DNA from: Candidatus Bathyarchaeota archaeon
GTDB lineage: Archaea; Thermoproteota; Bathyarchaeia; 40CM-2-53-6
NCBI GenBank assembly: GCA_963833125.1
Contig: CAWHWX010000032.1
Span: 16,187-80,186 of the forward strand
Direction of reading: 5' to 3'
Length of the DNA: 64,000 nucleotides
Shown here: piece by piece, positions 9,260 to 35,667 of the stretch
Numbering within the stretch: the first letter of the stretch is position 1
Layout of the letters: the number at the start of each line of letters is the position of its first letter
Translations under genes and position numbers: made by a program
The notes under the pieces: model-generated
What the model saw: the letters and a program-made list of their open reading frames with translations, nothing else
Told to the model about the DNA's origin: nothing
The model's database searches: none

Positions 9260-10110
9260 TTAGGTGTTCTTCGGTGTCTTGGTTCTGCGTCGAATCAACT
9301 CATACGCGACCAACATGAAGATAGCGAGTACTGGTAGCCCGAGGGGGTATTCTGGTATGGGCTGTGCCTGAGCGGGTCCGCCGGGGTCATTTACGGTGCC
9401 CGACCCGTCGGCTGTGAAACTTAAGGTGATCACCGTTCGGGTTGAATCCAACGTTGTTGGATACTGACTCCATGCCCCGCTTTGAAGTTTGTAATACGCG
9501 AAGCTGCCAGCCGGAAAAGGCACTGGTAAAGTTATAGTTACAGTAATCACCTGGGCAGGCGACAGATTCACAACCGTGAACGAAAACAAACCATCAGGAA
9601 AACTCAAGCCGCCCGGCGGCGATGGAGTCACGCTCCCAACCGGCAGTGCAGTTAGACTGGAGAATACTCCGGCAGACGCCGTGAATGCCGCATCACCAAG
9701 CCCCGTCGCCGTCGCTACGCTCTCGCTAGCGGCAGCAGAAACATCGAAGTTGATGCATTGGAAAGGAACGGGAGGGAAGTCATCGGACGCGCTGTATTGA
9801 CCCGATGGCAACTCGAAGGTTACCATGTAGGGTCCGAGGATTGTGGTCTGATAAACTATGAATGATGTCGGGTTGCAGCCATAACTCTGGAATACCTTAA
9901 ACGTCCCGCTTTGAGGAGCGGGGCCATCCCCTTTGAATATGATTGGTTCATCGGGCGAGCACGCATTGGGTCCCGTGCCTGCCGGGTGAGATGGGTTAGT
10001 ACAGTGCGCTTGATTGATCACTGCTCTCGCGGACCCAGCATTAATCAAAAGGAAGAAGGAGGAGATCGTTAGGATCAAGACGATCATAACACGCCTCAAG
10101 TCAAGACCCA
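9260..10110 (-). CDS. Secreted protein: N-domain like 861..1274, choice-of-anchor-U-like domain, PIPEYPLG anchor
   Basis: FPDGLFSFTV...VTITLP...YYK...DPGGP and QPIPEYPLG-TM-RRR; start approximate, placed at signal peptide LRRVMIVLILTISSFFLL. Confidence 0.8.
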
Positions 10111-17133: not shown

Positions 17134-18420
17134 ATGGCGAATAAGCGGTATGATGTGCTCGTTGTTGGAGCGGGAATCATTGGTTTATCCTCGGCTTATC
17201 ACATCAAACAAAACCATCCAGACCTCTCGGTTCTAATCATTGACCGTGCCCCTGCGGCGGGGCAGGGGGACACGGCGAAGAGTAATGCCGCATTACGTGA
17301 CACATTCACGTCACACGTGAACCGAACACTCGCACGAAGCTCGATAGAGTTCTACAAACACGTACAATCCGAAATCGGTTTCAACCTAAACCTAGACCTG
17401 GTCGGGTACCTTTGGTTGCTCAGCAAAGACCAGGTTCGAGAGTATGAAGCGGTTGAGACTGAGATGAGGGAGCAGGGAACTCGCCTTCGAACCGTTGAAT
17501 CAAATGAACTCGGCGCCCTGATCCCAGACCTTGTGATGCAACCTTCTTCACAACAGAGTAGGCTCATGGAATTGGAAAACGTGGAAAAGGGACTCTTCGG
17601 CATCGATTGCGGTATCGTCGCCCCCGAATTGATCGTTAAGTTCTACGAAAACGAACTCACGAAACTCGGCGCGAAATTTCAGTTCGGCACGGAAGCACAA
17701 GGAATACGGTTAGGGGCAAAGAAGAGTCTGGGTCTTCCCGGAGAACCCTTTGTCTGGCAGGAGAAAAACATCAAGGAAATCGACACGAACCGTGGCCCAA
17801 TCTCGGCGGACGTGATCGTCCTTTCCGCCGGAACAAGGAACCCACTCCTACTCGACCCGGTAGGCATAGATTGTATGATTAAACCTCGCAAAAACCAGCT
17901 CTTCCAATTGCGCGCACCGGGCCTTCAGCGATTGCTGAAGACGAAAGGTTTCAACGAACAGAACATAATCCCATTCACAATCCTACCAAAAGGAGAAGTC
18001 TACCTGAGGCCTGCGCCGAGGGAGAGCAGCCTATGGATTGCCGCGGCGGTAGGACTCGGACAACCGTTCAGGCTCGAAGAGGAACCCGCCGCAGACGGAG
18101 CATTCTACACGCAGAACATATACCCAGTTCTGAGCGAGTATTTCCCCTGCTTTACCGATCTTCGGCCGGTAAACATGTGGGCTGGCTTTTACGACGTCAA
18201 CTCCCTAGACTCAACCCCGATCGTGGCTAGGATAGGAAACTGCATAATCACCGCGGGCTTGAGTGGGAGCGGAATCATGAAAGCCGACTCCGTAGGTCGC
18301 ATAGCGGCCGCCCTTTTCGACGACAAAGAGGAAGCGACATTGTTCGGCAATCGCTGCATCTCAACTATGAAATTGGGACTTGTTAACCGAGCCGTTGAGA
18401 AAGAAAAATTCGTAATCTAG
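17134..18420 (+). CDS. FAD-dependent oxidoreductase (DAO/sarcosine oxidase beta-like)
   Basis: VVGAGIIGLSSAY, WAGFYD and GLSGSGIMKA motifs. Confidence 0.9.
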   Translation: MANKRYDVLVVGAGIIGLSSAYHIKQNHPDLSVLIIDRAPAAGQGDTAKSNAALRDTFTSHVNRTLARSSIEFYKHVQSEIGFNLNLDLVGYLWLLSKDQVREYEAVETEMREQGTRLRTVESNELGALIPDLVMQPSSQQSRLMELENVEKGLFGIDCGIVAPELIVKFYENELTKLGAKFQFGTEAQGIRLGAKKSLGLPGEPFVWQEKNIKEIDTNRGPISADVIVLSAGTRNPLLLDPVGIDCMIKPRKNQLFQLRAPGLQRLLKTKGFNEQNIIPFTILPKGEVYLRPAPRESSLWIAAAVGLGQPFRLEEEPAADGAFYTQNIYPVLSEYFPCFTDLRPVNMWAGFYDVNSLDSTPIVARIGNCIITAGLSGSGIMKADSVGRIAAALFDDKEEATLFGNRCISTMKLGLVNRAVEKEKFVI

Positions 18421-18471: not shown

Positions 18472-18583
18472 GCCTCGGTGGCTCAGCCTGGTAGATTACC
18501 TATACGGTAACTGGGAAGCGGCCGCCTCGTAACTCACGCAAGAAAGCGGCAGGTCGCGGGTTCAAACCCCGCCCGAGGCTCCA
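18472..18583 (+). tRNA. tRNA-Thr(CGT) with a D-arm intron (~22 nt) and a canonical 37/38 intron (13 nt); CCA encoded
   Basis: Acceptor GCCTCGG/CCGAGGC, anticodon arm GCCGC-CTCGTAA-GCGGC after intron removal, T-arm GCGGG-TTCAAAC-CCCGC. Confidence 0.93.
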
Positions 18584-18604: not shown

Positions 18605-18669
18605 TGTAGATTCTCATACTGTTTGTCAAATTCTCATACACCGTGTCATTTCTCTCAAACTGCGTGTCA
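18605..18669 (+). repeat. tRNA-proximal transposon end with three closely spaced TnsB-type sites
   Basis: TCTCATACTGTTTGTCA (18612), TCTCATACACCGTGTCA (18632), TCTCAAACTGCGTGTCA (18653). Confidence 0.88.
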
Positions 18670-18871
18670 CTGCGGTTGTTGACTTAATCTGATAAGCCAA
18701 CTAGAAAAGAGAAACGCCATCCCGCAATTGTCTTCTACAGTTACGGGGAGCTAGCCATGATAGTCCACAGATAGATTGAGGAGGTTGCGGGACTATGAAT
18801 GATTACTCGTTGGATCGATAAGCGCTAGTTTTAAGCGGTTGATGCGTCACTATCAGAAGTGTTTGCCCGCC

Positions 18872-19942
18872 ATGAACCCGAAATTCGTTGATCTCTTCTC
18901 GGGCATTGGCCTCGGATCTTTGGGTCTCGTTAGAGCCGGGTTCGAGATCGCTGCGGCAGTAGATATTGATCCAGAAGCGTGCGCGGTCTATAAGGAGAAC
19001 CTTGGAGTCGAACCCATTGTGGGTGACCTGCGGCACTTATCGGGGTCTGACATACTGAAACGGATCGGTCTCCGACGATGGAGAATTATCGCTGTGCGTG
19101 GGTTGTCCTCCGTGTCAAGGGTTCTCAACTCTGAGGAAGACGCGGCTCAAGAAATGGGAGAGAGATGGGCGCAAATCGCTGCTGAAAGTGTTTGCCCAGC
19201 GCGTGTGGACGAGCTCTTTCCGAAAATCGTAGTTTTCGAGAATGTGAGAGGAATAACACTTGGACAGAACCGCAGATTCTTGAAGGATTTTATGGCTCAC
19301 ATGAAGCGTCTCGGTTACTATCTCGACTTCAGGGTCTTGGACTCGGCGTATTACGGCGTGCCCCAGCACCGGCTCAGATTCATCCTAGTAGGGAGCAGGG
19401 AACTTCCTCCGAGTCTTCCGGAGGAGACGCACTCGAACCCGAGGTCTGACAACGAGAAGCCGCGGTGGAAGACCGTCAGGGACGCGATCGCAGACTTGCC
19501 CCCCCTTGAAGCCGGTCAGAGAGACGAAAACATTGCGCTTCATGAGGCAGCCGCACATTCGGAGAACGCGCTCAGAATAATATGCAGTATCCCGGCAAAC
19601 GGAGGCGGGAGAAAGAGCCTTCCCAAGAAACTATGGCTGCCGTGCCACAGGAGGCTTGCGAAGAGGAAGCAGCGCGGAGCGGAGAGCATCTATGGGAGGA
19701 TGCGGTGGGACGAGCCTTCCCCGACTATAACCACCAGAAGTCACATTCCAAGCTGCGGCCGATTCGTACACCCTTCGCAAAACCGTGGCATCACGCTGCG
19801 GGAGGCAGCGCGGCTGCAGAACATACCAGACGACTTCAAGATTCGGGCACGTGCCAAGGACCAAGCCGCTATTTGGATTGGCAACGCGATGCCACTTGCC
19901 CTGGCAGAAGCGCTAGGCCGGGAAATAATTCATCTCATTTAA
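18872..19942 (+). CDS. dcm: DNA (cytosine-5) methyltransferase (compensating frameshifts ~19080-19200)
   Basis: DLFSGIG, ENV, YGVPQHR.R, HPSQNRGITLREAARLQ and IGNA motifs; catalytic GCPPCQGFS lies in an alternate frame near 19100. Confidence 0.9.
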   Translation: MNPKFVDLFSGIGLGSLGLVRAGFEIAAAVDIDPEACAVYKENLGVEPIVGDLRHLSGSDILKRIGLRRWRIIAVRGLSSVSRVLNSEEDAAQEMGERWAQIAAESVCPARVDELFPKIVVFENVRGITLGQNRRFLKDFMAHMKRLGYYLDFRVLDSAYYGVPQHRLRFILVGSRELPPSLPEETHSNPRSDNEKPRWKTVRDAIADLPPLEAGQRDENIALHEAAAHSENALRIICSIPANGGGRKSLPKKLWLPCHRRLAKRKQRGAESIYGRMRWDEPSPTITTRSHIPSCGRFVHPSQNRGITLREAARLQNIPDDFKIRARAKDQAAIWIGNAMPLALAEALGREIIHLI

Positions 19943-19973
19943 GCGTCCGCCCAACTATACGGCATTGGTCTGA

Positions 19974-20405
19974 ATGCCGCGCCGAAGGGACAAGTTCTCG
20001 AAGGCGAAGCGCAGCCTAGTCATGTCCCAAATCCGGAGTAAGAACACCGGGCTGGACGTTTCGATGCGGAGAACTCTGCGGAAGGCCGAGATCAAGTTTG
20101 AGGCTTACCCCAAAATGTACGGCAACCCCGACTTCCTAGTCGAACAATGCATCGCTCTGTTTTGCGACAGCAGTTTCTGGCACGGACGAAACTGGAGAAA
20201 ACTGAAGCAGCAGCTCACGAATGGTTCGAACGCGAAATACTGGGTCGAGCACATAGCTAAGAACAGAAGCCGAGACCGGCTCGTGAATGCGACGCTCCGA
20301 AGGCACGGGCTCAAGGTGATCAGGTTTTGGGATGATGAAATATTCAAGCGTCCAGAGGCTTGCGTGAGAAGAATTAAAGCCGCCAAGCGGCTTATGTCGA
20401 CTTAA
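19974..20405 (+). CDS. vsr: Very short patch repair endonuclease
   Basis: RSLVMSQIRSKNT, GNPDF, FCDSSFWHG, NRSRD and IRFW motifs. Confidence 0.93.
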   Translation: MPRRRDKFSKAKRSLVMSQIRSKNTGLDVSMRRTLRKAEIKFEAYPKMYGNPDFLVEQCIALFCDSSFWHGRNWRKLKQQLTNGSNAKYWVEHIAKNRSRDRLVNATLRRHGLKVIRFWDDEIFKRPEACVRRIKAAKRLMST

Positions 20406-20426
20406 GCAATTGAGAGTGCGAGTTGC

Positions 20427-22428
20427 TTGACCGATCCTCATTCGCCATATGTGATGACGATCTCCCGAACGACCGTAGACAAATTGGGAATCAAACTGTA
20501 CGACAAGGCGTCCGCCGTGGTTGCGGAACTCATAGCGAACGCCTACGACGGAGACGCCGAGAACGTGACTGTAAAGATACCACTAAACCGCTGGCTGTCC
20601 ACAAAGTCTGAAGGGAAGGTGGTCGATCAGGGCCTAGAAATATCCGTTGAGGACGACGGGCACGGAGTAGAGCCCGGTCGTGTCAACGGCTTTTACCTCA
20701 CGGTGGGAAAAAACCCTCGAGAGGACCCCGGGAGAGGGCCGGTTTCGCCCGAGAAGAAGCGGCCGATATTCGGGCGCAAGGGCATAGGTAAACTCGCGGC
20801 CCTTCGGCATCTGCAAAATCATCGAGGTTGATTTTACCGGAGGAACGAAAGACGAAGCGAATCCAGCGCGGGAGTATCGTATCGCGCACTTCATCCTGAA
20901 CTATGACGAGATAAATTTCGACACCGACGAGCCCTACTACCCGAAGGTTGGGAAAGATGACGGCAAGTTATCGACCAAGAGAGGAACGGTCGTAACACTC
21001 AGAAACTTCCTCTACAGACGCACTCCGGACGAAGAAACTTTCCGTCACCAGCTACAGCGGATCTTCGGCCTCCAGCTCCCGGATTTCAAGATCGTGGTCG
21101 AGAACACCGAGACAGGGAACAAATTCGTCGTCGGTCAGCTCGATGTTGAGATCGAGGAGGAGACGAAGATCACGGTGGACGACAGGCCCGTCGAGATGCC
21201 TGACCACTCTATCCTGCCCGTCAGCGGATACGTCGCTTACGCCAAGAAGCCCTACAAATACGAGGAGGTGGCAGGGGTGCGGATCTACGCTAGAGGAAAA
21301 CTCGTCTCATCAACGAGAGATTTCGGACTGAAGGCAGGGTTCACAGGAGAACACACGCTAAGGTCGTACCTGACAGGCGAGATACACGCGGACTGGCTAG
21401 ACGATGAAGAGGATCTCATCCACACGGGTCGCCAAGACATACTATGGGACTCAGAAAGAGGAGAGCCGTTCAAGGCTTGGGGGCAGACGCTCCTCAAAGA
21501 GCTCGGAAAGAAAGCATGGACTCCGATGAAGCAGAAAGCTTACAAAGTGTTCCTTGAGAAGTCCGACCTTGAAACCAAGGTTTGGGATCGATTCGGTAAG
21601 ACACCTGTCGCAGATACGGCCATGGCTCTCGGCAAGGCCATCGGCCAGATTGCCGCTATAGAAAGCTTAGACGATCCAGAGTATGTCAAAAGACTGACTG
21701 AGATTGTACTCACGACAGCGCCCCATAAGATGCTCGTAGACACACTCACTGAGATCGCCGAGACGGCGGTCGAGGGTCCGCTGGATGTCGTCGTCGGGCT
21801 GTTCAACGACGCGGGACTCGCAGAAGCGGCCTCGATGGGCCAGATAGCCCTTGAGAGAGTCGATGCCATCGAGAAGCTCGAAGAGAAGCTCGGTGCTAAC
21901 CCTCCGGGGTATGAGAAAGAGCTACAGAAAATTCTGGAAAAATCTCCCTGGCTGATGCACCCGGAGTGGACAGTTCTTCAAGCGAATAAGCCATTTGAAG
22001 AACTCCGCACCGCCTTCGAGAAATGGTACGAGCTCAAATACAACAAGAAGATAGCCACGAAATCGATTGATTTGCAGACGAAGCCGGATTTCATAATGCT
22101 CGCGGTTTCCACCACCGTGGAGATCGTGGAAATTAAGAAGGCACAATGGGCGCTTACCGACGAGGAGTTCAGCAGGCTGCGAGGCTACTACGACGCCATA
22201 GAGCAGTTCATGAAGGACAACCCGGATTTCAGAAAAGAATTCCCGCGAACACACCTCACACTCATCTGCGACAAAGTGAACCTCTCAAGAAACATCCAAC
22301 TGGCCTTCGAGAAACTAGAGGGCGATGGTGTGTTGACCCGGAAGACTTGGTGGGAAACGCTAGCAAAAACGAAAAAAGTACACGAACAGTTCTTAGAGCA
22401 ACACCAGCGTCCAGCAGCGCCGCCTTAA
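20427..22428 (+). CDS. GHKL (MORC/Hsp90-like) ATPase with C-terminal PD-(D/E)XK nuclease domain (frameshift near 20805)
   Basis: ELIANAYD, VEDDGHG and GRKGIGKLA motifs; C-terminal KPDF...VEIKK. Confidence 0.85.
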
Positions 22429-22506: not shown

Positions 22507-22692
22507 TCACTTAGGCTTCCTTCGGACAATCATTGCGCTATCAGTTATTCCTACTAGAACAAGATCTCCTTCTTTGATCGAGAGTGCCTTCGCAACCTCC
22601 TTTGGGATTGTCATTCTTAACGAACCGTGGACGCGATTAATCTTAACCTCGAATTCTATTGGCATCTTAATCGGCAAAACTTCCATATACAA
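22507..22692 (-). CDS. AbrB/MazE/SpoVT-family DNA-binding protein
   Basis: GSLRMTIPKEVAKALSIKEGDLV motif. Confidence 0.85.
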   Translation of the reverse strand: MYMEVLPIKMPIEFEVKINRVHGSLRMTIPKEVAKALSIKEGDLVLVGITDSAMIVRRKPK

Positions 22693-22882: not shown

Positions 22883-23580
22883 ATGAATACTCACAACATC
22901 CGTGATTTGTGCACATAATCAGGATGCACGTACGTGTTCGAATTGCATTGAACTGCTACCCGCCTCATTCTGGGACAGACTAACGTGGAGGCGCTTCTCT
23001 CCAGGCATTGGCATCTATCATGTGACCGAACTGACACAATGCTTGGCTCGAGCATACTTCGAGAGAACCAAACCCACTCAAGAAACGGTCGAATCCGCAT
23101 GGGCAAAATTGCGAGGTTCCTTGCTTCACTACGCGGATAGGTCACTAGGCTGGAGCGAACTTCGGTGTCAAAATGAACTTCGAGCACGATAACGAAACAA
23201 TCACAATTGTTGGCCAAGTTGACGCGTACGATCCCGAAACAGCGACCATCTATGATCTTAAGACATCACGTTTTGTTAAATGGCAACATGAGAAAGGCTT
23301 CCTCCCTCGACAAAACCATCGCGCACAGATCCAGTCCTATTACACCATGTTGGATTCGTACGCTATCCCAATAAAACGGCTTGTCTTGATCTATGTGGAC
23401 GACAAGAATATCCTCGCCAAAGAAGTTCCACTAGGTTACCGCAAGGAATGGATGATCCGGAGAGCTTCGATTCTGCATAGGGCGTTGAGTGGGAGTCAGA
23501 TTCCTAAACCCGAACCTGACAATTGGTGCAAGTACTGTCCGTTCGTTCAAGTCTGCCCGGCGAAGGGAGGTGCAACCTGA
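22883..23580 (+). CDS. cas4: Solo Cas4-like PD-(D/E)XK nuclease with Fe-S Cys motif (frameshifted near 22900 and 23172)
   Basis: YHVTELTQC, GSLLH, GQVDAYD, IYDLKT, QIQSY and CKYCPFVQVC motifs. Confidence 0.8.
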
Positions 23581-24808
23581 ATGGGTGGATGCCTCCCCGT
23601 ACACCCACAGCCACGTGAGGGTGAATCGCTCACATCATGGATTGATCACGTTACACGATGCAATGGCATTACAATTCGACAGTTGTTGTCACATTGGGTG
23701 AGCGAGGCTGACTGGAGATACAGGGACCTTGACTTTCTGAAAATAGACGAGCTGAGAATACTTGCCGACCTTGCACGCGTTCAAGGTGGAACGGGCAAGC
23801 TGCGCAGTATGGTACTAACACCCTGGAAGGCGGTATTCTCAGAACCTAGGAACGAAATGGATCGCAAAGGTTGGGTTTGCTCGCGAGCGACAATTCGATA
23901 TTGTCCAATCTGCTTACAAATTGAAGAGCCATACTTCAGGTTATCGTGGCGCCTCCTCTTCCTTCCCCTCTGCGGCCGTCATGGGGTAGTGCTGCAAAGG
24001 GGCTCCTCGAGAATTATGCCAAATCCGAGTGAAGCGCCTCTGATTAAACCAACTAACTGCACCCTATTGTCACGTTTTAGTTCTTCTGGAATTGGAATTC
24101 TTGAATCACAAGCTCTTTCCCAGGGTTTTGGCTGGTCAGATAGTGGACAGGAATTTTTCCTTGTCCTTCTTACCCTGGTGAGGTACCTCAATCTCTACTT
24201 GCAACGCCGAACCGCTTTGGATAAGCGATTTGAAAGCCCACGGACTGCCTACCGCACCGCCTTTCGATTGGCGAAAGAATGAGGCTGTAGCGGTGCTTCT
24301 GATTGAAAGAGCTCTTGGTCTAGTTGAGGAATGGCCGAGAAATATCGGGAGGTTTGTCCGAGCGAATAGAACCCGCTTCAACAGATTACGCGTGGAGTAT
24401 GCTGCCCACTTCCCTAAGACACTAAGGGCTCTGAACGCGGAAAACATCGAACATAATGCTATCAGCAGCGTTGAACATGAGATTGAAAATTTACCTGATT
24501 ACAAGGAACGCCCAGACGAAGACCGAGTAAGACGCGCCGTTCAATACTTGCTGGAAACAAACGTTCCAGTCTCCCTAAGAGAGGTCGGTAAAATCACTAA
24601 AGTGAGTTTCGAACAGCTGAAGAACGAGGAAAAACTGAACAAAATCGTACTAGAAGGAAAGCGAGTGTTCAGATTTAAGCAAGAAGATGAGATTCAAAAC
24701 GCCATTACGGTGTTGCGTGGAAGGGGACTATATCCATCGGTCGGGGCTATTGCTACATATCTTGGAAGATCTCATCGATATCTGCATTCACATAAGATCA
24801 GAACATGA
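23581..24808 (+). CDS. tniQ: TniQ/TnsD-family target selector 1 (~409 codons, C-terminal HTH-like repeats; frameshift near 24230)
   Basis: PVHPQPREGESLTSWI, RDLD, YCPICL, YFRLSWRL..LPLCGRHGVVL; tail VSLREVGKITKVS and PSVGAIATYLGRS. Confidence 0.88.
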
Positions 24809-24827
24809 GAAAAGATAGAGAGTAATT

Positions 24828-25565
24828 TTAATCCTTCAACGCAGAAACCGCCCAATCAATAGAGTCCTGGAGGCCACTGCCAGGACTCTTCTTCTCAATG
24901 AGTACGGCAGCCGTCTTTATGTTGACTTTTTCATTGATAACCTTCAAAAACTGTTCCAATTTTGAAAAAGCATCCCGGGTCGAGCCATCTTCGACGACGA
25001 CCATCAACACGCCTTGTAAACCCTCCCATATGTTTTCCACATGACCCCCGTCCTGAAGGTCCAGCAGCTTGCCTCCTAAAGCGAGGATATCTTCATCCAC
25101 AAGATTGTCTAATACAATAATCCCCAGGAAACGCGCATTGCCTCCTACCGAAATACTATCGTCGTAAGTATATACAATGTCAAAATTGTGGATGAAAGTT
25201 GTACCTTTCACCTTAAGATGCTCATCAGTTTGAACATTGAATGATGTTCTTACATTCAGCAGTTCTCCTATGACGAAACCTCTAGTCGGGTAGTATAACT
25301 TTGCAATAATACTTTCAACAACGGATTTTCGCTTCGGAACAACTCGATAGATTTTTCTTCTTCCTTCGCTTTTGATCGCTACCAGAGACAGAAGCCTTAA
25401 TCGCTGCAATACGAGATGGATTGACGGCTGCTTTTTGTGAAGCGCTTTTGCGATCTCGGCCTCAGTAACTCCGTCGGTTTCGATTATGAACTTGGTCGAT
25501 TCGGCTAAGACCGGGCTTTCCCGCAGGATAGCATAGAGCTCAGCCTCACTGATCCCTTGGCTCAT
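24828..25565 (-). CDS. Winged-HTH regulator with nuclease-fold-like C-terminal domain
   Basis: GVTEAEIAKALHKKQPSIHLVLQRL...EGRRKIYRV; C-domain VKGTTFIHNFDIVY. Confidence 0.7.
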   Translation of the reverse strand: MSQGISEAELYAILRESPVLAESTKFIIETDGVTEAEIAKALHKKQPSIHLVLQRLRLLSLVAIKSEGRRKIYRVVPKRKSVVESIIAKLYYPTRGFVIGELLNVRTSFNVQTDEHLKVKGTTFIHNFDIVYTYDDSISVGGNARFLGIIVLDNLVDEDILALGGKLLDLQDGGHVENIWEGLQGVLMVVVEDGSTRDAFSKLEQFLKVINEKVNIKTAAVLIEKKSPGSGLQDSIDWAVSALKD

Positions 25566-25607
25566 GAGGCAAGTCAGAGTGAAGCCACACTTTTAACATT
25601 ACCTCTA

Positions 25608-25636
25608 ATGTTATATTATAGATGCTATTATAACAT
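25608..25636. promoter_or_regulatory. Inverted repeat in the divergent regulator/tnsA promoter
   Basis: ATGTTATA-N13-TATAACAT. Confidence 0.6.
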
Positions 25637-25659
25637 AATATTCGAGATGATGTGATGTA

Positions 25660-26472
25660 ATGCCACGCACCTTCCCAGTGAAACCAAACTACGGAGTCGA
25701 GATTGGTGTTATGGAGCCGGTTGAGATTTCTTCGTCGAATGAACCTGCGAGGAAGATTCGGCCGAACTACAGGAGTTCCACAGGCTTCTACGTTACTCGT
25801 AAAGGAAAAGCACTTGCTTTTGAATCAAAACAAGAACGAGACGCACTTCTCACCCTTGACTTTGACCCAAGTGTGCGCGATCTTGTCACTCAGCCACTGA
25901 GAATTGGAAACTATGTGCCGGATTGCCGTATAGAAACGACTTTTGATCTGACCGTTATTGTGGAAATAAAGTCAGAGAGCGAACTTGTTGAGAAATGGAT
26001 AGAGCTATCAGCGAAGTATTCTGCAGCAAATGATTACTGCTTCGCCAAAGGCTTTGAGTTTGTGTTTGTTACTGACTTCTACATCTACTACTCAGAACAA
26101 TATCGACTCAATATACTGAAAAAAGTAAGATTTCTTGGAGCCCGTCCAGAAGAATCCGACGAACAAGTTCAGGAACAACTCGTTAAGCTCCTAGGTCAGA
26201 TGCCATTATCCGTCGGTTCACTAGCCAAGAAGATCGAAGCGCCACTGGACGAGGCCAACAGAATTCGAGAAATTTGCAGACTTCTCTGTTCTGGTTCAGC
26301 TCACATTTTCAAAACCCCCACCCCACACCTCAAGGACTGCTTAATCTCAACCACCGAGGAAGGATGTGACACATTCCGTTCCCATGTCTTCAGCTTCGAG
26401 CAAATGAAAGAACGACTTCGAACCCATCCTTATCGACAACTCGAAGGAGGATTTGCCAGACTTGTTAATTGA
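25660..26472 (+). CDS. tnsA: TnsA endonuclease
   Basis: FESKQERD..L.LDFDPSV...TQP...YVPD...IVEIK; helical C-domain; overlaps tnsB start. Confidence 0.92.
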   Translation: MPRTFPVKPNYGVEIGVMEPVEISSSNEPARKIRPNYRSSTGFYVTRKGKALAFESKQERDALLTLDFDPSVRDLVTQPLRIGNYVPDCRIETTFDLTVIVEIKSESELVEKWIELSAKYSAANDYCFAKGFEFVFVTDFYIYYSEQYRLNILKKVRFLGARPEESDEQVQEQLVKLLGQMPLSVGSLAKKIEAPLDEANRIREICRLLCSGSAHIFKTPTPHLKDCLISTTEEGCDTFRSHVFSFEQMKERLRTHPYRQLEGGFARLVN

Positions 26473-28450
26473 ACCGGGGTCTAAGATCTCGATCAACGAC
26501 CAAGTCTTCACAGTCATAGACGGGACGGAAATCAACAAAGCAGAGATCAAGAGCGACTCGTCCGGACATGTATATTGCGTAGATCTCATGAATAAGATAC
26601 GAACAGGGGACGCACTATCCCTCATAGGTTCAGATCGACAATCTAATCGCCTATCGCATTTGGGCATTCTCTCACTCACCGATGAACAGCACGCTGAGGC
26701 GCGACGCCGCTACGTAGCTATCCTCGCAATCCTCCACATGAAGAAACGAACCTCCCATGAGAAAGAGGAAATACGGAAGCAATTCGCAAGGCAGCTGTGG
26801 AGACTCGCTGTTTCCTCAAGGACGATCAAGCGGTGGATAGAGAGATACACACTATCCGGATTCAAAGGTCTCGTAACAAGCGAGTCTTTTGGAGGAAAGG
26901 GAGGAACAAGAACCGATAAAGAATCCGAATCGATCCTTCAAAAGGTCATAGAAGAACAATATTTCACAAAGCAACAAAAGAATAAAGCGGAAGTCTACCG
27001 CGAATTCGAATCAGAGAGCAATCTTAAAGGTCTTACAAGTGTAGATGAGAACGGAAACGTGCGGCCGCCAATACCGCGCTCGACAATTTACCGTAGGCTA
27101 GCCCTTCTCGATCAAAGAGAAGTCACGTTGAGGCGTCTAGGGAACAGGGCCTACGTGCAAAAGCACTGTCTCAAAGGGGGAAGGTATCCTGACGTGGAAT
27201 ATCCATTAGAGACAATTTTAATCGACCATACGAAGCTTGACATAATCCTGCGAGATCCAATAACAAGAAAACCCATTGGTAGACCATGGATCACAGTTGC
27301 GATAGACGCATTTAGTCGATGCATCTGGGCATTCTACCTAAGTCTGGAACCACCTAACGCAGACACGGTTGGTTTAGTAATTATAATTGGTTGCAAGATC
27401 AAAAGTCAACTTGCGAAGTCACTCGGCTGCGAATCTGAATGGCCTGTCTATGGACTCCCGTCCAAATACACACTGACAATGGCAGAGACTTCAGAGCAAA
27501 ACAACTGGAAAAAGGCTGTGAAGCACAAGGAATCTCCCTCGTCAGAAGACCAATCAAAACGCCTGAGTTCGGCGGAATTATAGAACGCTTCTTCGGCACA
27601 CTCAACACCGAACTAATCCACAACTTGCCTGGAACAACTCGCTCAAACGTAATGAGTCTGAAGAACGGAGACTACGATCCAGAAAAGGAATCCCTCCTTG
27701 AACTGGAAGAGCTTGAACACCTCATCGCTAGATTCATTGTAGATCAATATCACAATACCCCGCACCGCGGGAATCAATACGACTCCCCTAAGAAAATGGA
27801 AAGAGGGAATTGAAGAAAATGCAATTGCCCCTTCTGAACCCGACGATATCGAACGTTTCAGACAAGATTTCCTCCCCTATGTCGAGGGCCCTAACGGAAC
27901 CCGTCAGATCGAGCGAGATGGGATACACTACCTGGGATTGGTCTACTATGCAAGCGAATTGAATCACTTAACACGTAACGAAAACGGCGGAAAAATACCA
28001 AAAGCATATTTCATTAAATATGACCCACAAGACCTTCGATACGTCTACATTTACGACGACGAAAACGACTGCTACCACGCACTAAGTCTCAGTGAACGCC
28101 CCATTGAGCCTTTCACTAAACGCAACCTCGAGATCAGCTCAAGGCAAAAGCGAGAGACGGCCACCGACAAACTCGATCAACACAGACGCCTAGACGCAAT
28201 CCAAGAACGACGAGAATTTCTCACGAGCAGGATTGAGGGGAACAAAAGAGCTCGTAGAACAATGGCCTCAGAAAGATCGGAGCGCGGTCGCCGTTCTCGC
28301 ACAATCCCTCTCACAAATCCAATGAATGCCTCTGACGAAGACGATAATGTGAACAACGATTCTGAGAGCTCGGATAACACGTCGTCTGAAATCGTATACT
28401 CCACCGATGACCAAGAGGAAGAAGTTGAATCGAATGAAGATCTACAATGA
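26453..28450 (+). CDS. tnsB: TnsB/TniA DDE transposase (~666 codons; frameshifts near 27455 and 27770)
   Basis: IDHTKLD...PIGRPWITVAIDAFSR, WPVYG, IHTDNGRDF, GIIERFFGTLN, YHNTPH and KYDPQDL motifs. Confidence 0.95.
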
Positions 28451-29325
28451 CACAAATTATTCAGGTTGATCATTTAACCGCCCATGTCAGATCACGATTA
28501 AACAGATCTATTGATGAGCGAATCAAGGATATTCAGGCGCTGACATATGTTCCATATCCCAAAGCCGAATACGTTCTCTCATTAATGCATCGACTCTGCT
28601 CCGAGCCAATGTCGGGAAGACCTCGTGGACTTACCATTTCTGCGGTTAGTGGAAACGGCAAAACCACCATAACAAATACGTTCCTCTACAAACATCCGAT
28701 GCGCGAGACAACTGAAGCCAGAATTATACCCGTCTTGAAAGTAGAGGCACCACCGGTTCCCAGTGAGAAAAGGATCCTCGGCGGGATCTTGAATGGTTTC
28801 AGCTCAGGAGACGCCATCGAAGCAGGCGACGTCGAGACGAGAATGCGACGAATCAAGATCCTTGTCCATAGATGCCAAGTTAAACTAATGGTCCTCGACG
28901 AATCCAATAACTTGCTCGCGGGAACAGCAAGAGCAATGGAAGAATGCTGCAACGTATTGAAGTACCTCTCCAATCAACTGGGCATCCGAATTGTTCTCGT
29001 TGGCACAAAACGTGTTGAAAACGTTCTGAGGTCGGATCCACAACTCCTTTCGCGCTTTCCAATAGTTGAATTGCCGTTATGGAAAGACGGGAGATGTTAC
29101 CGGAGATTTCTCGAAATGCTCGAATCGGCACTACCCTTGGCAAATGCCAGCGATCTGGCGTCCGACGAGAAAGCTTTCGCTCTCTTAGAACACTCCCACG
29201 GAGTACTGGGCGACATTGTAATGACCGTCAAAGACGCAGCGATTTGCGCTCTACGCAATCACGAAGAACGCATAACCACGGATATACTGAAGTGCCCCTT
29301 TTCAGTTCTCAAGAAAAGTCGCTGA
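28447..29325 (+). CDS. tnsC: TnsC/TniB AAA+ ATPase
   Basis: YVPYPKA, Walker A SGNGKT, Walker B MVLDE, DPQLLSRF; ATGA overlap with tnsB. Confidence 0.95.
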   Translation: MTQIIQVDHLTAHVRSRLNRSIDERIKDIQALTYVPYPKAEYVLSLMHRLCSEPMSGRPRGLTISAVSGNGKTTITNTFLYKHPMRETTEARIIPVLKVEAPPVPSEKRILGGILNGFSSGDAIEAGDVETRMRRIKILVHRCQVKLMVLDESNNLLAGTARAMEECCNVLKYLSNQLGIRIVLVGTKRVENVLRSDPQLLSRFPIVELPLWKDGRCYRRFLEMLESALPLANASDLASDEKAFALLEHSHGVLGDIVMTVKDAAICALRNHEERITTDILKCPFSVLKKSR

Positions 29326-29364
29326 ACACGATATCGTACACCATGATTTCGTACGACGAGGGAT

Positions 29365-30352
29365 ATGATGGAAACAGATATCGCAGTAGGACAACTCATT
29401 CGACAGAGTCTATGGCCAATACATCCGCCACCTTTACGCCGGCGAGTCTTTGGAATCGTGGATAACTAGACAAGCCTATGCAAACTGCTGCTCTCTCAAC
29501 ACTTTCTTACCCAGCTATCTCAAGACATATCCCACGCATTCAGGGAGAGAGATTACTCTCGACTTAGACTTCCTAAACGGGAATGACGAATCTCTTCAAA
29601 TAATTAGTGGCCTTATCGGTAGGAGACTTGCTGGAAACATGACGTTGCACTTCTTCAGGCACGTCTTAGATATAGGCAGGGAAGCTGAGAAAGCCAAAGG
29701 GCGATGGCGAGGCCCCTCTACTTGCGGATTTAATTGGGTTGTTCCTAGGCGTGATGGACGGATGTATTGTCCAGTATGCTTAGCTGGAGACAAGACTACT
29801 CACTTTCGCTTAGCTTGGCGACTAAGGTTCGCACCGATTTGCGTCAAGCATAAGGTGCTTCTGGAATCCGATTGCGGTCATTGCCACCATCTGATGAACC
29901 ATTTCGATGATAACGCCCATTACGATATAGGAAAATGTCCACAATGTGAATCATCACTTAGTTCTGCGCTACCCAAAGCACTTGATTCGAATGAGGACGG
30001 TTACGTTGCTATTTCGAACCTTTTGGGATTGCTCTATTCCACGGTGGGACTTCAAGAGATTGGTTGGGAAGAAAGTAAGGCCGACCTATTTGCTAGCCTG
30101 AAGCTCGTTGTTCTAATGTTGCTAGCCACAGCCAAATCTCCAGTTCCCGCCTACCGAAGAACTTTTCGTGATGCATCTATGATCTATGGATTAATGGGAC
30201 GGGCGTGGAGAATGTTGCTAGATTCCGCAGACATTCAACAATTCATTGCGAATCATCGGGGGCTTTTCCATTACCTTACACGCAAAAGATATCCCTACGT
30301 CTGTCCAAAATATTTCAACAGATACACGATGATTATTGCTACGCCTTCATGA
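29365..30352 (+). CDS. tniQ: TniQ-family protein 2 (~329 codons; frameshift near 29435)
   Basis: WPIHPPP/GESLESWITR, YCPVCL, FRLAWRL, CVKH, CGHC and CPQC motifs. Confidence 0.9.
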
Positions 30353-30857
30353 ATGTGCTGATGATCATGAACTCAGCGGATTTCTTGGGAAAAATAGGTT
30401 CTGCGGTGAGGGAATTTTACGATCACGACTCCATACTAACAATGCTGAACACGGAAAGGCCGATAGCGCATAGAGTGGCTTTCTATCTGGACCCGCTTTT
30501 CGAAGACTGGGATGTAGATTGCGAGTACAATCGCTATGGGAAGGAGAAGATCAAAGAGTTGGAAAAAATACGCGAGTGCGACCCGAGCGGAAGACCGATA
30601 GAATATACCCGGATATAGTGATACACGAAAGAATGTCGGAAGACAGGAATAACATTGCAGTAATAGAAATCAAGCCGAAACCCGACATAGAAGACTGCGA
30701 CAGAATGAAACTAGAACTTATGACTAGGAAGGGAGACGAGGACAAATACAAATATGAATTCGGTTTGTTTTTGGGATTCGAGCCCAGCGGATGCACGTGG
30801 ATTTTATTCGTAGGCGGGGAAAGGAATAGCGACGGAAGGATTGAGGCAAAGGCATAG
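30349..30857 (+). CDS. Putative PD-(D/E)XK nuclease-fold protein (frameshift near 30590)
   Basis: ERPIAHRVAFYL, VDCEYNR and IYPDIVIHER...IAVIEIK; start overlaps tniQ2 stop. Confidence 0.65.
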
Positions 30858-30941: not shown

Positions 30942-31460
30942 TTGAATACTATCAAGGACTTAGCCATCGCCAAATCCAACTCTCCACGATTCTTCCAACA
31001 AACCTTCCAACAATGCCTCACCCAACTCGCGGAAGGGTGCCACTCCCCAACCGACTTTGAAATCGCGAAACAGCAAATCCCGGAAATCGTCACGGAAGCC
31101 GTCCAACGGCTACGCGAAAGAACCGTGTCCCTAGCGAACCTGGAGTACCGAGTTGAACTAAGAGAGGACCCACACGAAAAGTTGACGTCGAAGAGGCTGC
31201 CGCAACCCTACCAGGTGGCTTGGTTGCTCACGAAGCAGGGAAAGGCTCCGGTCTGCGGAGAGATGGTCGATTTCGCGAAAGTGTTTCCCTTCAGATTGCA
31301 GGGAAGACAATTCACCGTCAAACCCACCCCACAAATAAACTCGAAGGAGATCGACGTAGAGGACTACATCCTCAGCCTACTCGCCTCACTATCACAGGTC
31401 TTCGATCCGATGAATATTCGACTCAAAATGAATCCGACGACCCTCTCAGATTTCGTTTAA
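30942..31460 (+). CDS. Hypothetical protein
   Basis: 172-aa ORF; start uncertain. Confidence 0.55.
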   Translation: MNTIKDLAIAKSNSPRFFQQTFQQCLTQLAEGCHSPTDFEIAKQQIPEIVTEAVQRLRERTVSLANLEYRVELREDPHEKLTSKRLPQPYQVAWLLTKQGKAPVCGEMVDFAKVFPFRLQGRQFTVKPTPQINSKEIDVEDYILSLLASLSQVFDPMNIRLKMNPTTLSDFV

Positions 31461-33389: not shown

Positions 33390-34058
33390 TGAGGAAACTG
33401 GATTGGCAGTTTCCTTTCCCTTTTTTATTCGTTCGGACGAATCATTCCTTTGTGAAATAATTCTGAGTAGTCCGCATCAGTAATGAGCCACCATCTCAGT
33501 TGGCCGCTATTATCGACCACGAAATCAAATTTGAACTTGACGAATCCGCTAAACAAACCATTGGCGATCTTGCGACCACAGCGTCCGCGTTCAATTTCCG
33601 CTTCTAGCAGTTCTTCTAAGCGAAGCACTCGTGGCGCCCTGTGGGAACGCATTAGTCGGGGGAAGCGTCCATTTTGCTTAGTCATTGATGACAACACTAT
33701 CGCGATTAGATATATGGAGTTTAGCTTCTCTTAGAAAAATAGGACAGAGGGTATGGAACCAGACGGAGAAGGGAAAATGTAATGTGATTCGCAGTGGGCG
33801 ATTCAAAGGAACTCGGTAAACTGATCGTCGAAACTCTGAATCTACAGGTCGGAGATACTTACGAACTACTGACCTGTAAAGGAAACCCATACTACGTGTT
33901 GGTAAAACGAATTCCGGCAGGCATACCAGACGTACCGAAATGGAACGAAGAGGTATCGGGAATGGCGATCGCTTAGAACCGTACTAAGGCGTTTGCGCCA
34001 CCATAACAGGCGGTGTGACTCTGCAAAGGATTCCATAAATCCTAGTCGGGATCCAGAT

Positions 34059-34350: not shown

Positions 34351-35667
34351 GTGCCCATAGGTTTGATGTTTGGAATGACCAACCGGACTCTGGAAAGGAT
34401 TCTTCAACTAGAAAATCAGCATTCTACGTATAGAAGCCACTGTCTAAATCTCATCGTGTCCGAAAATGTAGCTAGTCCTTCAGTCCGTAGGAGGCTCTCA
34501 TCTGACTTCGAATGCCGCTACGGAAATGCGTACGCTCCCACTTTGTCCACCGATTGGGAGGCTTTCGCCAAGGTGAGGTGGTACGAAGGTCTTCAGTACG
34601 TAGAAAACGTTGAGAAGATATGTAATACGTTGCTACGGCAACTCTTTGATGCGAAATACGCTGACTATCGACCATTATCAGGAAGCTCAGCGATTTTGGC
34701 GAATTGGCTGAGCTTAACGGAACCTGGCGACACGATTGTCACAACCCGTGATTATGACGGTGGACATGGATCAGGTTGGGACGATTGCGCAACGATTTTG
34801 GGTCGAAAGGTCACACATTGGCCCTTCGACTCTAATGAGTTTAGAATTGATGTCGACAAAGCGGAACGTATGATTCGACGGACTAAACCTAAACTCCTAG
34901 TCTTCGGTGCCAGTCAAATCTTGTTTCCCGCTCCAATCAGTGAACTAAAGTCAGTCGCTGATGATGTCAGCGCATACTGCGTCTACGACGGCTCACATGT
35001 TATGGGGCTCTTAGCAGGAAAACGTTTGCAAGATCCTCTCAGAGAAGGTGCAATCGCTTTGTTCGGAAGTACGCACAAGACATTTCCCGGCCCACAAGGG
35101 GGATTGATTGTATCAAACGCTCAACATGAGATTTTGGAGAAGTTAGACAGAACATTGAGCCCCACCTTGTTTGACAATTATCACCAACACCGAGTTGCAG
35201 CCCTAGCCGTAGCTTCTGCAGAAATGATTGCCTTCGGTCAGGCCTATGCGGATCAGATAATTAGAAACGCGAAAGCCCTTGGACAAGCCTTGAATGAGGA
35301 AGGCTTCACTGTTGTCGGGTCACACAAAGGATTCACCCAGACACATCAGGTATTGTTGGACGTGAGACCTCTGAAGAGAGATGGTCGTGAATTAGCAAAA
35401 GTCCTTGCCTCATGCAATATCATAACAAACCAAATTCATCTTCCCGGCGACCCTTCTGAAGACAGATTCGGAGGAGTTCGATTGGGGACGGCCGAGGTCA
35501 CAAGGACTGGAATGAAAGAAAATGAGATGAAGACGGTGGCTTCGCTGTTCCGGTTGTGCTTGATCGATCGCAGAGGAACAGGCCATGTTAAGAGGCAAGT
35601 CATTAAATTCAAGGCGCGATTCAATCGACTAAAATACTCTTTTGATGAAGGGCTCCCTGCATACTGA
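34351..35667 (+). CDS. glyA: Serine hydroxymethyltransferase-family PLP enzyme
   Basis: LNLIVSEN, YDGSHVMGL, PLP-Lys motif STHKTFPGPQGG, GVRLGT.EVTR.GM. Confidence 0.88.
   Translation: MPIGLMFGMTNRTLERILQLENQHSTYRSHCLNLIVSENVASPSVRRRLSSDFECRYGNAYAPTLSTDWEAFAKVRWYEGLQYVENVEKICNTLLRQLFDAKYADYRPLSGSSAILANWLSLTEPGDTIVTTRDYDGGHGSGWDDCATILGRKVTHWPFDSNEFRIDVDKAERMIRRTKPKLLVFGASQILFPAPISELKSVADDVSAYCVYDGSHVMGLLAGKRLQDPLREGAIALFGSTHKTFPGPQGGLIVSNAQHEILEKLDRTLSPTLFDNYHQHRVAALAVASAEMIAFGQAYADQIIRNAKALGQALNEEGFTVVGSHKGFTQTHQVLLDVRPLKRDGRELAKVLASCNIITNQIHLPGDPSEDRFGGVRLGTAEVTRTGMKENEMKTVASLFRLCLIDRRGTGHVKRQVIKFKARFNRLKYSFDEGLPAY

Follow-up and report, generated by a model that had tools for sequence, protein, structure and literature searches.

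The 64,000-nt stretch of DNA analyzed here (the window, to whose positions all coordinates refer) comes from contig C32 of the metagenome-assembled Bathyarchaeota genome G000 (3.07 Mb in 39 contigs, 87.8% complete, 7% contamination). It contains a Tn7-family transposon with heteromeric TnsA+TnsB, a TniB-type TnsC, and two TniQ selectors, and the gene for one of these selectors, tniQ1, directly follows a gene for a Cas4-family nuclease. Archaeal Tn7-like transposons at tRNA-Thr genes and dual TniQ in bacteria were already known. What is new, as far as sequence can tell, is an inherited, translationally coupled Cas4-TniQ1 pair in CRISPR-free hosts, together with its probable origin from a module of Cas4 and a zinc-finger protein. 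The element is not CRISPR-guided, and a role of Cas4 in targeting appears plausible. We judge it somewhat better than an even bet, at roughly 0.55, that Cas4 would serve the TniQ1 pathway as an accessory nuclease.

The cas4 gene occupies positions 22883 to 23580 of the plus strand and was recognized by PF01930 (E 3.9e-7, score above the family cut-off) and PF12705; it encodes PD-(D/E)XK motifs and four conserved Cys. Comparison with PDB 4ic1_A gave an E value of 0.002, and the closest relative of the predicted protein, P0002, matched PADLOC Cas4 with an E value of 1.5e-11. The D, (D/E)xK, and QxxxY motifs and C39, C201, C204, and C210 (numbering of alignment A2) are invariant across the family and are all present in the pieces encoded in the window; we take them to be the catalytic and Fe-S cluster residues. 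The gene was classed as a solo or element-borne member of the Cas4 family because the genome yielded no Cas1 and TIGR00372 scored 26.8 bits against a cut-off of 65. The cas4 stop codon at 23580 directly abuts the tniQ1 ATG at 23581. tniQ1 (positions 23581 to 24808, plus strand; PF06527, E 1.4e-15) encodes a TniQ core followed by a helical, helix-turn-helix (HTH)-like C-terminal domain, and its intact homologue has 405 aa.

The remaining core genes form a second plus-strand operon, tnsA-tnsB-tnsC-tniQ2, separated from cas4-tniQ1 by a minus-strand gene for a TrmB/ArsR-like winged HTH (wHTH) regulator of 245 aa (positions 24828 to 25565). This gene is divergent from tnsA, has weak Pfam and NCBIfam matches, and has positional counterparts in the elements of the congeneric genome G565 and of L142, an archaeal locus described below. 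The 94-nt spacer between it and tnsA (positions 25566 to 25659) holds two short palindromes, taacatt...aatgtta and tattata...tataa, which are likely to be operators of divergent promoters. tnsA (positions 25660 to 26472) matched PF08722 (E 4.7e-7, 30.7 bits against a cut-off of 26.5) and the TnsA-like model NF033179 (E 3.2e-10). tnsB (positions 26453 to 28450) is spread over three frames whose pieces match G565 TnsAB at 29-45% and L142 TnsB at 35-50% identity; its Mu-transpos_C match is borderline (E 2.2e-4; the score of 21.6 bits falls just short of the 21.7 cut-off), and the same domain in G565 gave an E value of 5.1e-12. tnsC (positions 28447 to 29325; PF05621, E 6.4e-45) encodes a TniB-type AAA+ ATPase, and tniQ2 (positions 29450 to 30352; PF06527, E 6.4e-17) encodes a 300-aa protein 29% identical to TniQ1. 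TniQ1 has one CxxC...CxxH zinc-knuckle pair, to which TniQ2 adds a CxxC...CxxC pair, and these two proteins, both scoring above the PF06527 cut-off, account for all TniQ matches in the whole genome. The ATG of the next plus-strand gene, at 30349, overlaps the tniQ2 stop codon (ATGA). This gene (positions 30349 to 30857) encodes a putative nuclease resembling PD-Lambda-3_A (PADLOC PDLC03986, E 7.6e-11 and 2.7e-4 for two pieces); the elements of G565 and L142 lack it, and it is therefore probably defense cargo placed in the transposition operon. The first-pass annotation had described the abutting junction, the two separate operons, the numbers of zinc-knuckle pairs, and the position of tniQ2 between tnsC and an overlapping PD-(D/E)XK-like gene, and all of this was borne out.

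Relatives of TniQ1 are few. From 415 candidates drawn out of 5.8 billion proteins, three were found: P0062 (405 aa, 67% identical), P0063 (374 aa, 53% identical), and the fragment P0064. A contig search with the TniQ1 alignment gave 65 pattern matches, none of which was confirmed. The two TniQ1 pieces of the window jointly align to P0062 from end to end, and P0062 belongs to G565, a genome of the same genus; of 22 congeners, G565 alone gave a match. In G565 the same intron-bearing tRNA gene is followed 30 nt on by a TGTCG... repeat array and then, in order from the tRNA, by tniQ2, tnsC, a fused tnsAB gene (871 aa), an HTH gene, tniQ1, cas4, and other genes. Here cas4 (199+ aa) and tniQ1 (405 aa) are intact and directly abut. 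The linkage of cas4 and tniQ1 in homologous elements, on which the first-pass annotation had made its proposal of a partnership depend, is thus conserved. Between the window and G565, identity was 61-66% for Cas4 and TniQ1 and 37-40% for TniQ2. It fell to 29-45% over the pieces of TnsA, TnsB, and TnsC, with TnsA and TnsC at about 32%, and stood at 80-94% in the host flank. We read these as two different elements at one site. Furthermore, two TniQ1 relatives share contigs with the nearest Cas4 relatives, as judged by equal contig sizes (1,572,808 and 32,355 bp). We conclude that cas4 belongs to the element, the tniQ1 junction and the distinctive last ~25 residues of Cas4 being common to the window and to a congener element whose predicted transposase is ~32% identical. 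Two other placements of cas4 were tried and rejected. A transposon that targets cas4, or has it as a bordering host gene, would need an end between cas4 and tniQ1, where there is no room for one. A host cas4 gene fits poorly with its conservation, which is far below that of the host flank, and no SWIM gene, the usual neighbor in this family, was found elsewhere in the locus or genome save a distant SWIM-DDE gene on contig C4.

That usual neighbor emerged from a wider survey of the Cas4 family. The C-terminal Cas4 piece retrieved 60 proteins at an E value of <=0.001 among 67 candidates, with 59-82% identity, and a scan of metagenome contigs gave 59 loci whose neighborhoods of up to 10 kb were searched by tblastn at an E value of <=1e-5. 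In 48 of these loci, cas4 is accompanied by a gene for a SWIM-type protein of 170-200 aa, usually through an ATGA overlap with the cas4 stop codon (e.g., L022:10055-11229; loci L003-L061). The partner combines a SWIM finger with a second, IS1/IS1595-type zinc ribbon. Its N-terminal region recurs in L026/L036 and L034 within a longer downstream protein, which in L026 has 381 aa and a DDE_Tnp_IS240 domain (E 2.3e-19). No convincing inverted repeats were found around cas4 plus SWIM-DDE, and the idea that the SWIM partner is a hidden TniQ was discarded at an hhalign probability of 0.2%. We found no description of the Cas4-SWIM pair in the literature. Methyltransferases recur in 11 of the 59 loci, and the remaining neighborhood is variable. 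The family is patchy: within the taxonomic family, 5 of 59 genomes hold it, and IMG/VR held only 2 distant loci (30% identity); a viral origin was rejected on the ground of this near absence from viral contigs. SWIM-linked, patchy, and nearly absent from viral contigs, this Cas4 family would be an accessory gene that normally stands beside a transposase-type DNA-binding protein.

The history of the Cas4 protein itself was approached with a tree of 48 sequences with SH-aLRT support. The window's Cas4 and P0002 are sisters (SH-aLRT 97), and the TniQ-linked Cas4 of G565, P0017, falls within a 99%-supported clade of SWIM-linked sequences. G565 holds a second cas4 copy, which is SWIM-linked. The body of P0017 is identical to that copy at 142/174 positions versus 108/174 for P0002. 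In its last 25 residues, P0017 is identical to P0002 at 20/25 positions, to the window's Cas4 at 18/25, and to the SWIM-linked copy at 10/25, and at the nucleotide level the two G565 cas4 copies cease to be similar about 125 nt ahead of the stop codon. Because P0017 is a mosaic, the 3' end of cas4 and the tniQ1 junction appear to have been inherited from one capture, with the body replaced by recombination with the resident paralogue. That the junction was kept suggests that it matters.

We therefore propose, conditionally, the following course of events. A cas4 gene would have been captured once from a two-gene module of Cas4 and a SWIM/IS1-type zinc-finger protein, and TniQ1 would have taken the place of the zinc-finger partner. 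Cas4, presumably co-translated with TniQ1, may act at the target or close to it, recognizing or processing branched DNA or DNA ends, by analogy with TnsE, which reads 3'-recessed ends.

A related element indicates when cas4 may have joined. A sample of 400 other genomes of the phylum contained no TnsC relative. The protein collection held 9, and the nearest relative in named genomes belongs to an uncultured Nitrososphaerota archaeon. Among species representatives, 80 TnsC-related loci were kept, of which one is archaeal (L142, 47% identity) and the other 79 are mostly bacterial (30-35%). L142 has the order methylases, a small minus-strand gene, a tniQ1-like gene (366 aa), a TrmB-like HTH gene, tnsA, tnsB, tnsC, and tniQ2; the small minus-strand open reading frame (ORF) upstream of the tniQ1-like gene reads as AbrB-like, and the TniQ1-like protein is without the C-terminal tail. 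This protein is 36-38% identical to the TniQ1s versus 25-28% to the TniQ2s. Since the L142 proteins pair with TniQ1 and TniQ2, respectively, the TniQ duplication predates these elements and cas4 arrived later.

Several observations weigh against a Cas4 that works for TniQ1. L142 has no cas4 in its locus or genome, so Cas4 would be dispensable for the dual-TniQ layout and, it seems, not essential to the architecture; nor did any of the 80 TnsC-related loci give a Cas4 match. In the metagenome survey, TniQ1, TnsA, TnsB, TnsC, and TniQ2 were found near 0 of the 59 Cas4 loci by tblastn. The co-occurrence of cas4 and tniQ that the first-pass annotation had anticipated thus holds in G565 but not in the related dual-TniQ element L142, and the usual partner of the Cas4 family is the SWIM protein. 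TniQ-linked Cas4s do not form one clade, the tree requiring two changes, and the place of P0017 among SWIM-linked sequences and the interchangeability of the body imply that most of Cas4 is not coevolving with TniQ1. P0063 and P0002, which is 82% identical to the window's Cas4, each come from a contig of 32,355 bp, and both their residence on the same contig and their adjacency are drawn from that equal size alone. The order of the core genes relative to the tRNA is opposite in the window and in G565, even though packed sites occur at the proximal end of each element. One common homing selector does not explain this, and the far end of the window's element was not convincingly located. Finally, the structural match that would tie the TniQ1 tail to a known selector is limited. 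The best of 48,161 chains for the TniQ1 C-terminal domain was chain J of 9bw1, a TnsABCD-DNA transpososome (rmsd 2.0 over 52 residues), at a Z score of 6.8, which is below the caution line of 8; a Foldseek search of the PDB with the same domain gave nothing at an E value of <=0.001.

The division of labor between the two TniQ proteins can be drawn tentatively. The full TniQ1 model, built on an alignment of 3 sequences, was poor (mean pLDDT 48.4), with helices at residues 310-395 (pLDDT 78-90), and the C-terminal piece modeled alone reached a pLDDT of 64.6. We take chain J of 9bw1 to be TnsD. The likeness of the modeled tail to it is a hint only, the next structural matches being TetR-type HTH domains, and the TniQ1 profile had 0 matches among PDB sequences. 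TniQ1 has the C-terminal HTH domain and, of the two TniQ proteins, has diverged less between the elements of the window and G565, which use the same tRNA site; for these reasons we lean toward TniQ1 as a TnsD-like DNA-binding reader of the tRNA. TniQ2 would then be the selector that travels with tnsABC.

The strongest rival to an accessory role is that cas4 is passenger cargo with no part in transposition, a defense, antidefense, or repair nuclease that benefits host or element. The accessory, patchy character of the family, the methyltransferases in its neighborhoods, the cas4-free L142, and the exchange of the cas4 body with SWIM-linked copies are what one would expect of cargo, and the element carries other defense-type genes (a restriction-modification set with Vsr and the PD-Lambda-3-like gene). 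Solo Cas4 genes are also common in archaea, with possible repair or defense roles, according to the text of Hudaiberdiev et al. 2017 (PMC5704561). A mere passenger does not account well for an abutting junction and a C-terminal tail that outlived both the divergence of the transposase to ~32% identity and the replacement of the cas4 body. In its usual context, moreover, Cas4 is equally tightly coupled (ATGA) to a transposase-derived zinc-finger protein or a whole SWIM-DDE transposase, a coupling that fits a nuclease working with a DNA-binding partner. We consider cargo a possible explanation, although not a likely one.

A bolder variant of the accessory role would make Cas4-TniQ1 a nuclease-coupled target selector, a third Tn7 targeting module beside TnsD/TniQ and RNA-guided Cascade/Cas12k. 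Cas4 would sense or trim ends or branched DNA, for example incoming linear viral or plasmid DNA or breaks, and through its special C-terminal tail would pass the site on to TniQ1 and TnsC. The origin of the module would be the wider Cas4 partnership with transposase-type zinc-finger proteins (SWIM plus IS1-type ribbon, sometimes a whole SWIM-DDE transposase). We put this forward tentatively, as a rather unlikely extension.

The element might instead be a decaying relic in which nothing is functional. The first-pass annotation had treated the genes as single open frames and had overlooked five breaks, one each in cas4, tniQ1, and the gene after tniQ2 and two in tnsB. The cas4 frame switches near 23165-23190, and probably once more between the ATG at 22883 and position 22902; intact Cas4 homologues of 199-217 aa run through the window's cas4 break, which by reading lies outside a homopolymer. 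tniQ1 switches near 24230-24280, tnsB at about 27440-27580 and 27810-27940, and the PD-Lambda-3_A-like gene once. As a control, 253 ORFs of at least 200 aa from 400 kb of the congener G577 were compared with G000, with the best contig taken per gene, and 173 pairs were retained at >=60% identity and >=70% coverage. In G000, 39 of these conserved host genes are spread over more than one frame, and the 185,467 nt compared contain 51 switches (0.27 per kb); a less strict first count had given 43 of 199 pairs. Over its 7,743 coding nt, the element shows 5 switches versus 2.1 expected (Poisson P = 0.065), so that a slight excess over the genomic background may be present. rpoB is found as 703 + 483 aa in two frames in G000 and as a single 1123-aa frame in G565, and one large aminoacyl-tRNA synthetase of G000 is in pieces with stops. 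Since the whole assembly is indel-rich and host genes are split too, the breaks in the element are most likely assembly errors, and decay, which had been the first reading, was dropped after the 173-gene host control. The relic explanation still draws on the number of breaks, which exceeds the genomic expectation, on the position of the cas4 break, the want of a convincing second end, and the restriction enzyme of the cargo, which is without model positions 104-248; this gap may be a real deletion and not an assembly indel. Essential host genes are broken at a similar rate, the conserved motifs are retained in every piece, and cas4, tniQ1, and tnsAB of the congener are intact, all of which make a relic improbable. 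Indels are dense in G000 generally (e.g., C14:90087-91201), and pseudogene calls in this genome need the same control. Frame breaks were also seen in other assemblies, in tniQ2 and a host FAD-oxidase gene of G565 (L086, L087) and in tnsB of L142, which lies in three ORFs (L142:8114-9909), and the intactness of single genes in these two assemblies should be read with care.

Very improbably, two tandem transposons with one TniQ each stand at the tRNA and the pairing of cas4-tniQ1 with tnsABC-tniQ2 is accidental: tRNA sites do collect successive insertions, as the differing regions past the tRNA in four congeners illustrate, and identity to G565 is unequal (61-66% for cas4-tniQ1 versus ~32% for tnsABC), but no transposon end lies between tniQ1 and tnsA, where the spacer is a divergent promoter region with palindromes, the order tniQ1-HTH-tnsA/B-tnsC-tniQ2 recurs in G565 and L142, and the affinities of the L142 TniQ1-like protein point to orthologous sets.

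The least credible alternative is a disguised CRISPR-associated transposon (CAST) whose second TniQ uses a host CRISPR effector in trans. Known CASTs use TniQ as their adaptor to Cascade or Cas12k, and Cas4 is usually a CRISPR adaptation protein. Searches for Cas1, DevR/Cas7, and Cas5d found none in G000 or G565, and Cas6 was absent from G000, G565, and G742; control genomes gave matches in each case. TRF returned 0 rows for the window, and a k-mer scan of the G000 genome found no CRISPR array. G565 is 96% complete and G000 87.8%, so that absence is not proven for G000. ORFs scanned from 18.8 to 33.4 kb contained no cas family except Cas4, although no family search was aimed at Cas8 or Cas12. 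A TnsE_C search gave no match and was uninformative, the control genomes having been silent as well. The domain, array, and cas searches together uphold the first-pass description of a Tn7-like element with two TniQ paralogues and without a CRISPR effector, cas5/6/7 genes, or an array.

With an accessory role of Cas4 as the preferred explanation, we turn to the setting of the element. That setting is archaeal, with a tRNA that carries introns, regulators of the TrmB and HVO types, and a piece of a family B polymerase. Host oxidoreductase genes end at 18420, to the left of a plus-strand tRNA gene (positions 18472 to 18580; Rfam RF00005, 40.7 bits) that is the probable attachment site. ARAGORN did not detect this tRNA, whereas Rfam did; it has two insertions, one of 28 nt within its D arm and one of 15 nt following the anticodon, and the anticodon loop CUCGUAA is read as CGU (Thr). 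The intron-bearing tRNA-Thr(CGU) is kept in four congeners. Beginning 24 nt past the Rfam end of the tRNA, the proximal transposon end consists of three packed TGT-initiated repeats, TGTAGATTCTCATAC, TGTCAAATTCTCATAC, and TGTCATTTCTCTCAAAC (positions 18605 to 18660, plus strand), found by direct reading and a motif scan, which gave clustered copies there only. Two different elements, those of the window and of G565, lie 24 and 30 nt beyond the same tRNA, as expected of site-specific insertion. The first-pass annotation had supposed that one TniQ homes to the tRNA; the tRNA is present and its site is also used by the divergent G565 element, but it lies 4.3 kb outside the 22883-30352 stretch to which that annotation referred. 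The site appears to be an integration hotspot because downstream DNA differs in every congener compared (G577 L118, G644 L119, G525 L120, and G664 L121), and for the same reason synteny with these four yielded no empty site. G644 has a duplicate of the tRNA 3' end (CCCGAGGCT) a few bases downstream, the pattern expected of an integrase-type attachment site.

Between the proximal end and cas4 lies a cargo of type II restriction-modification genes on the plus strand (positions 18839 to 22428). It comprises a C5 methylase (18839-19942; PF00145, E 9.4e-44), a Vsr repair endonuclease (19974-20405; TIGR00632, E 2.5e-23), and a BbrUII/HgiDII-like restriction enzyme split into two ORFs at 20427-20831 and 21094-22428 (NF050001, E 6.4e-28 and 1.2e-26). 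A small AbrB/MazE-type gene (positions 22507 to 22692, minus strand; PF04014, E 2.8e-10) is divergent from cas4. On the other side, past the PD-Lambda-3_A-like gene, positions 30942 to 31460 (plus strand) encode a C-terminal fragment of a family B DNA polymerase (PF00136 positions 303-452 of 453, E 2.8e-6). Polymerase B fragments that are 84-86% identical occur ~9 kb from cas4 in two metagenome loci (L016:19782-19974 and L018:9872-10064), each over two frames. Motif searches for a second transposon end found no inverted repeat cluster. A weak candidate is an inverted copy of the terminal 9-mer, TGTAGATTC, at positions 33838 to 33846 of the minus strand (short-word BLAST, search E 1.7), which has no repeated sites and no 5-bp duplication and would give an element of 15.2 kb; host-type metabolic genes resume at 34351. 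A possible far end of the G565 element near position 10089 of the reverse-complemented L086+L087 merge is equally weak.

The Tn7 family is the main model for how transposons control their choice of target, and CRISPR-guided insertion tools are built on it; both the biology and the toolbox have grown with every new selector. If Cas4 indeed serves TniQ1, the Cas4-TniQ operon would be a new class of partner for TniQ and would bear on the long-standing question of what the many archaeal solo Cas4 genes do. That the Cas4 family is otherwise joined to transposase-derived zinc-finger proteins points to a general module of a nuclease and a DNA binder, and if the bolder, nuclease-coupled form were true, Cas4 nucleases would be recurrent helpers of transposition in these archaea. 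If cas4 is mere cargo, the locus still adds a useful example to the rare class of tRNA-Thr-homing archaeal Tn7-like elements.

Tn7 encodes TnsA, TnsB, and TnsC and a TniQ-family selector that inserts the element a short fixed distance past a conserved gene, with the end packed with TGT sites facing the target; a second selector, TnsE, serves another class of targets and, to our knowledge, has no nuclease partner. The window's element resembles Tn7 in TnsA+TnsB+TnsC, in site-specific insertion by a conserved gene, and in the TGT-packed end toward the target. It differs in its second selector, which is again a TniQ and shares a separate operon with a Cas4 nuclease.

Benler et al. 2021 had, in the portion consulted, found no archaeal Tn7-like transposase at that time. 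Such elements have since been described by Thesier et al. 2025 (bioRxiv 10.1101/2025.07.27.667033), whose main text reports a 15.8-kb "Clade V" element of Bathyarchaeia with fused tnsAB by a threonine tRNA gene, notes that some archaeal elements encode multiple TniQs, and uses a mate-out assay for a Heimdallarchaeial element. The window's element is like the Clade V element in its archaeal host, Tn7 core, tRNA-Thr site, and size near 15 kb, and the G565 element shares the fused tnsAB; in the window, unlike Clade V, tnsA and tnsB are separate, and the likeness is drawn from these traits. That main text has 0 occurrences of Cas4 and no nuclease-coupled TniQ, although its cargo table and supplements, where Cas4 may be listed, were not covered. 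More broadly, we found no Cas4-TniQ operon described in the literature (supplements and image tables were not covered).

In the text of Faure et al. 2023 (PMC10293859), tandem tniQ/tnsD pairs are counted at 1,048 loci, some of these elements home to tRNA genes, and Cas4 appears only within the I-D adaptation module. Those dual elements and the window's have in common two tniQ-family genes per tnsC; theirs are in tandem after tnsC, whereas the window's are 4.6 kb apart in separate operons. In type I-B/I-D CASTs, as described in the sources consulted, the second TniQ works with Cascade, whereas no effector or array was found in the window. As for Cas4 outside CRISPR loci, the text of the 2017 survey by Hudaiberdiev et al. 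treats solo and element-borne Cas4 with 0 occurrences of Tn7 or SWIM, and ACE1 (PMC12094033) is presented as an Argonaute-associated Cas4 enzyme. As far as these texts describe them, the window's Cas4 is like solo Cas4 and ACE1 in being a Cas4-family PD-(D/E)XK Fe-S nuclease outside CRISPR loci, a kind that is sometimes the helper of another DNA-targeting system, and it is unlike them in its partner, which in this family is a TniQ or a transposase-type zinc-finger protein.

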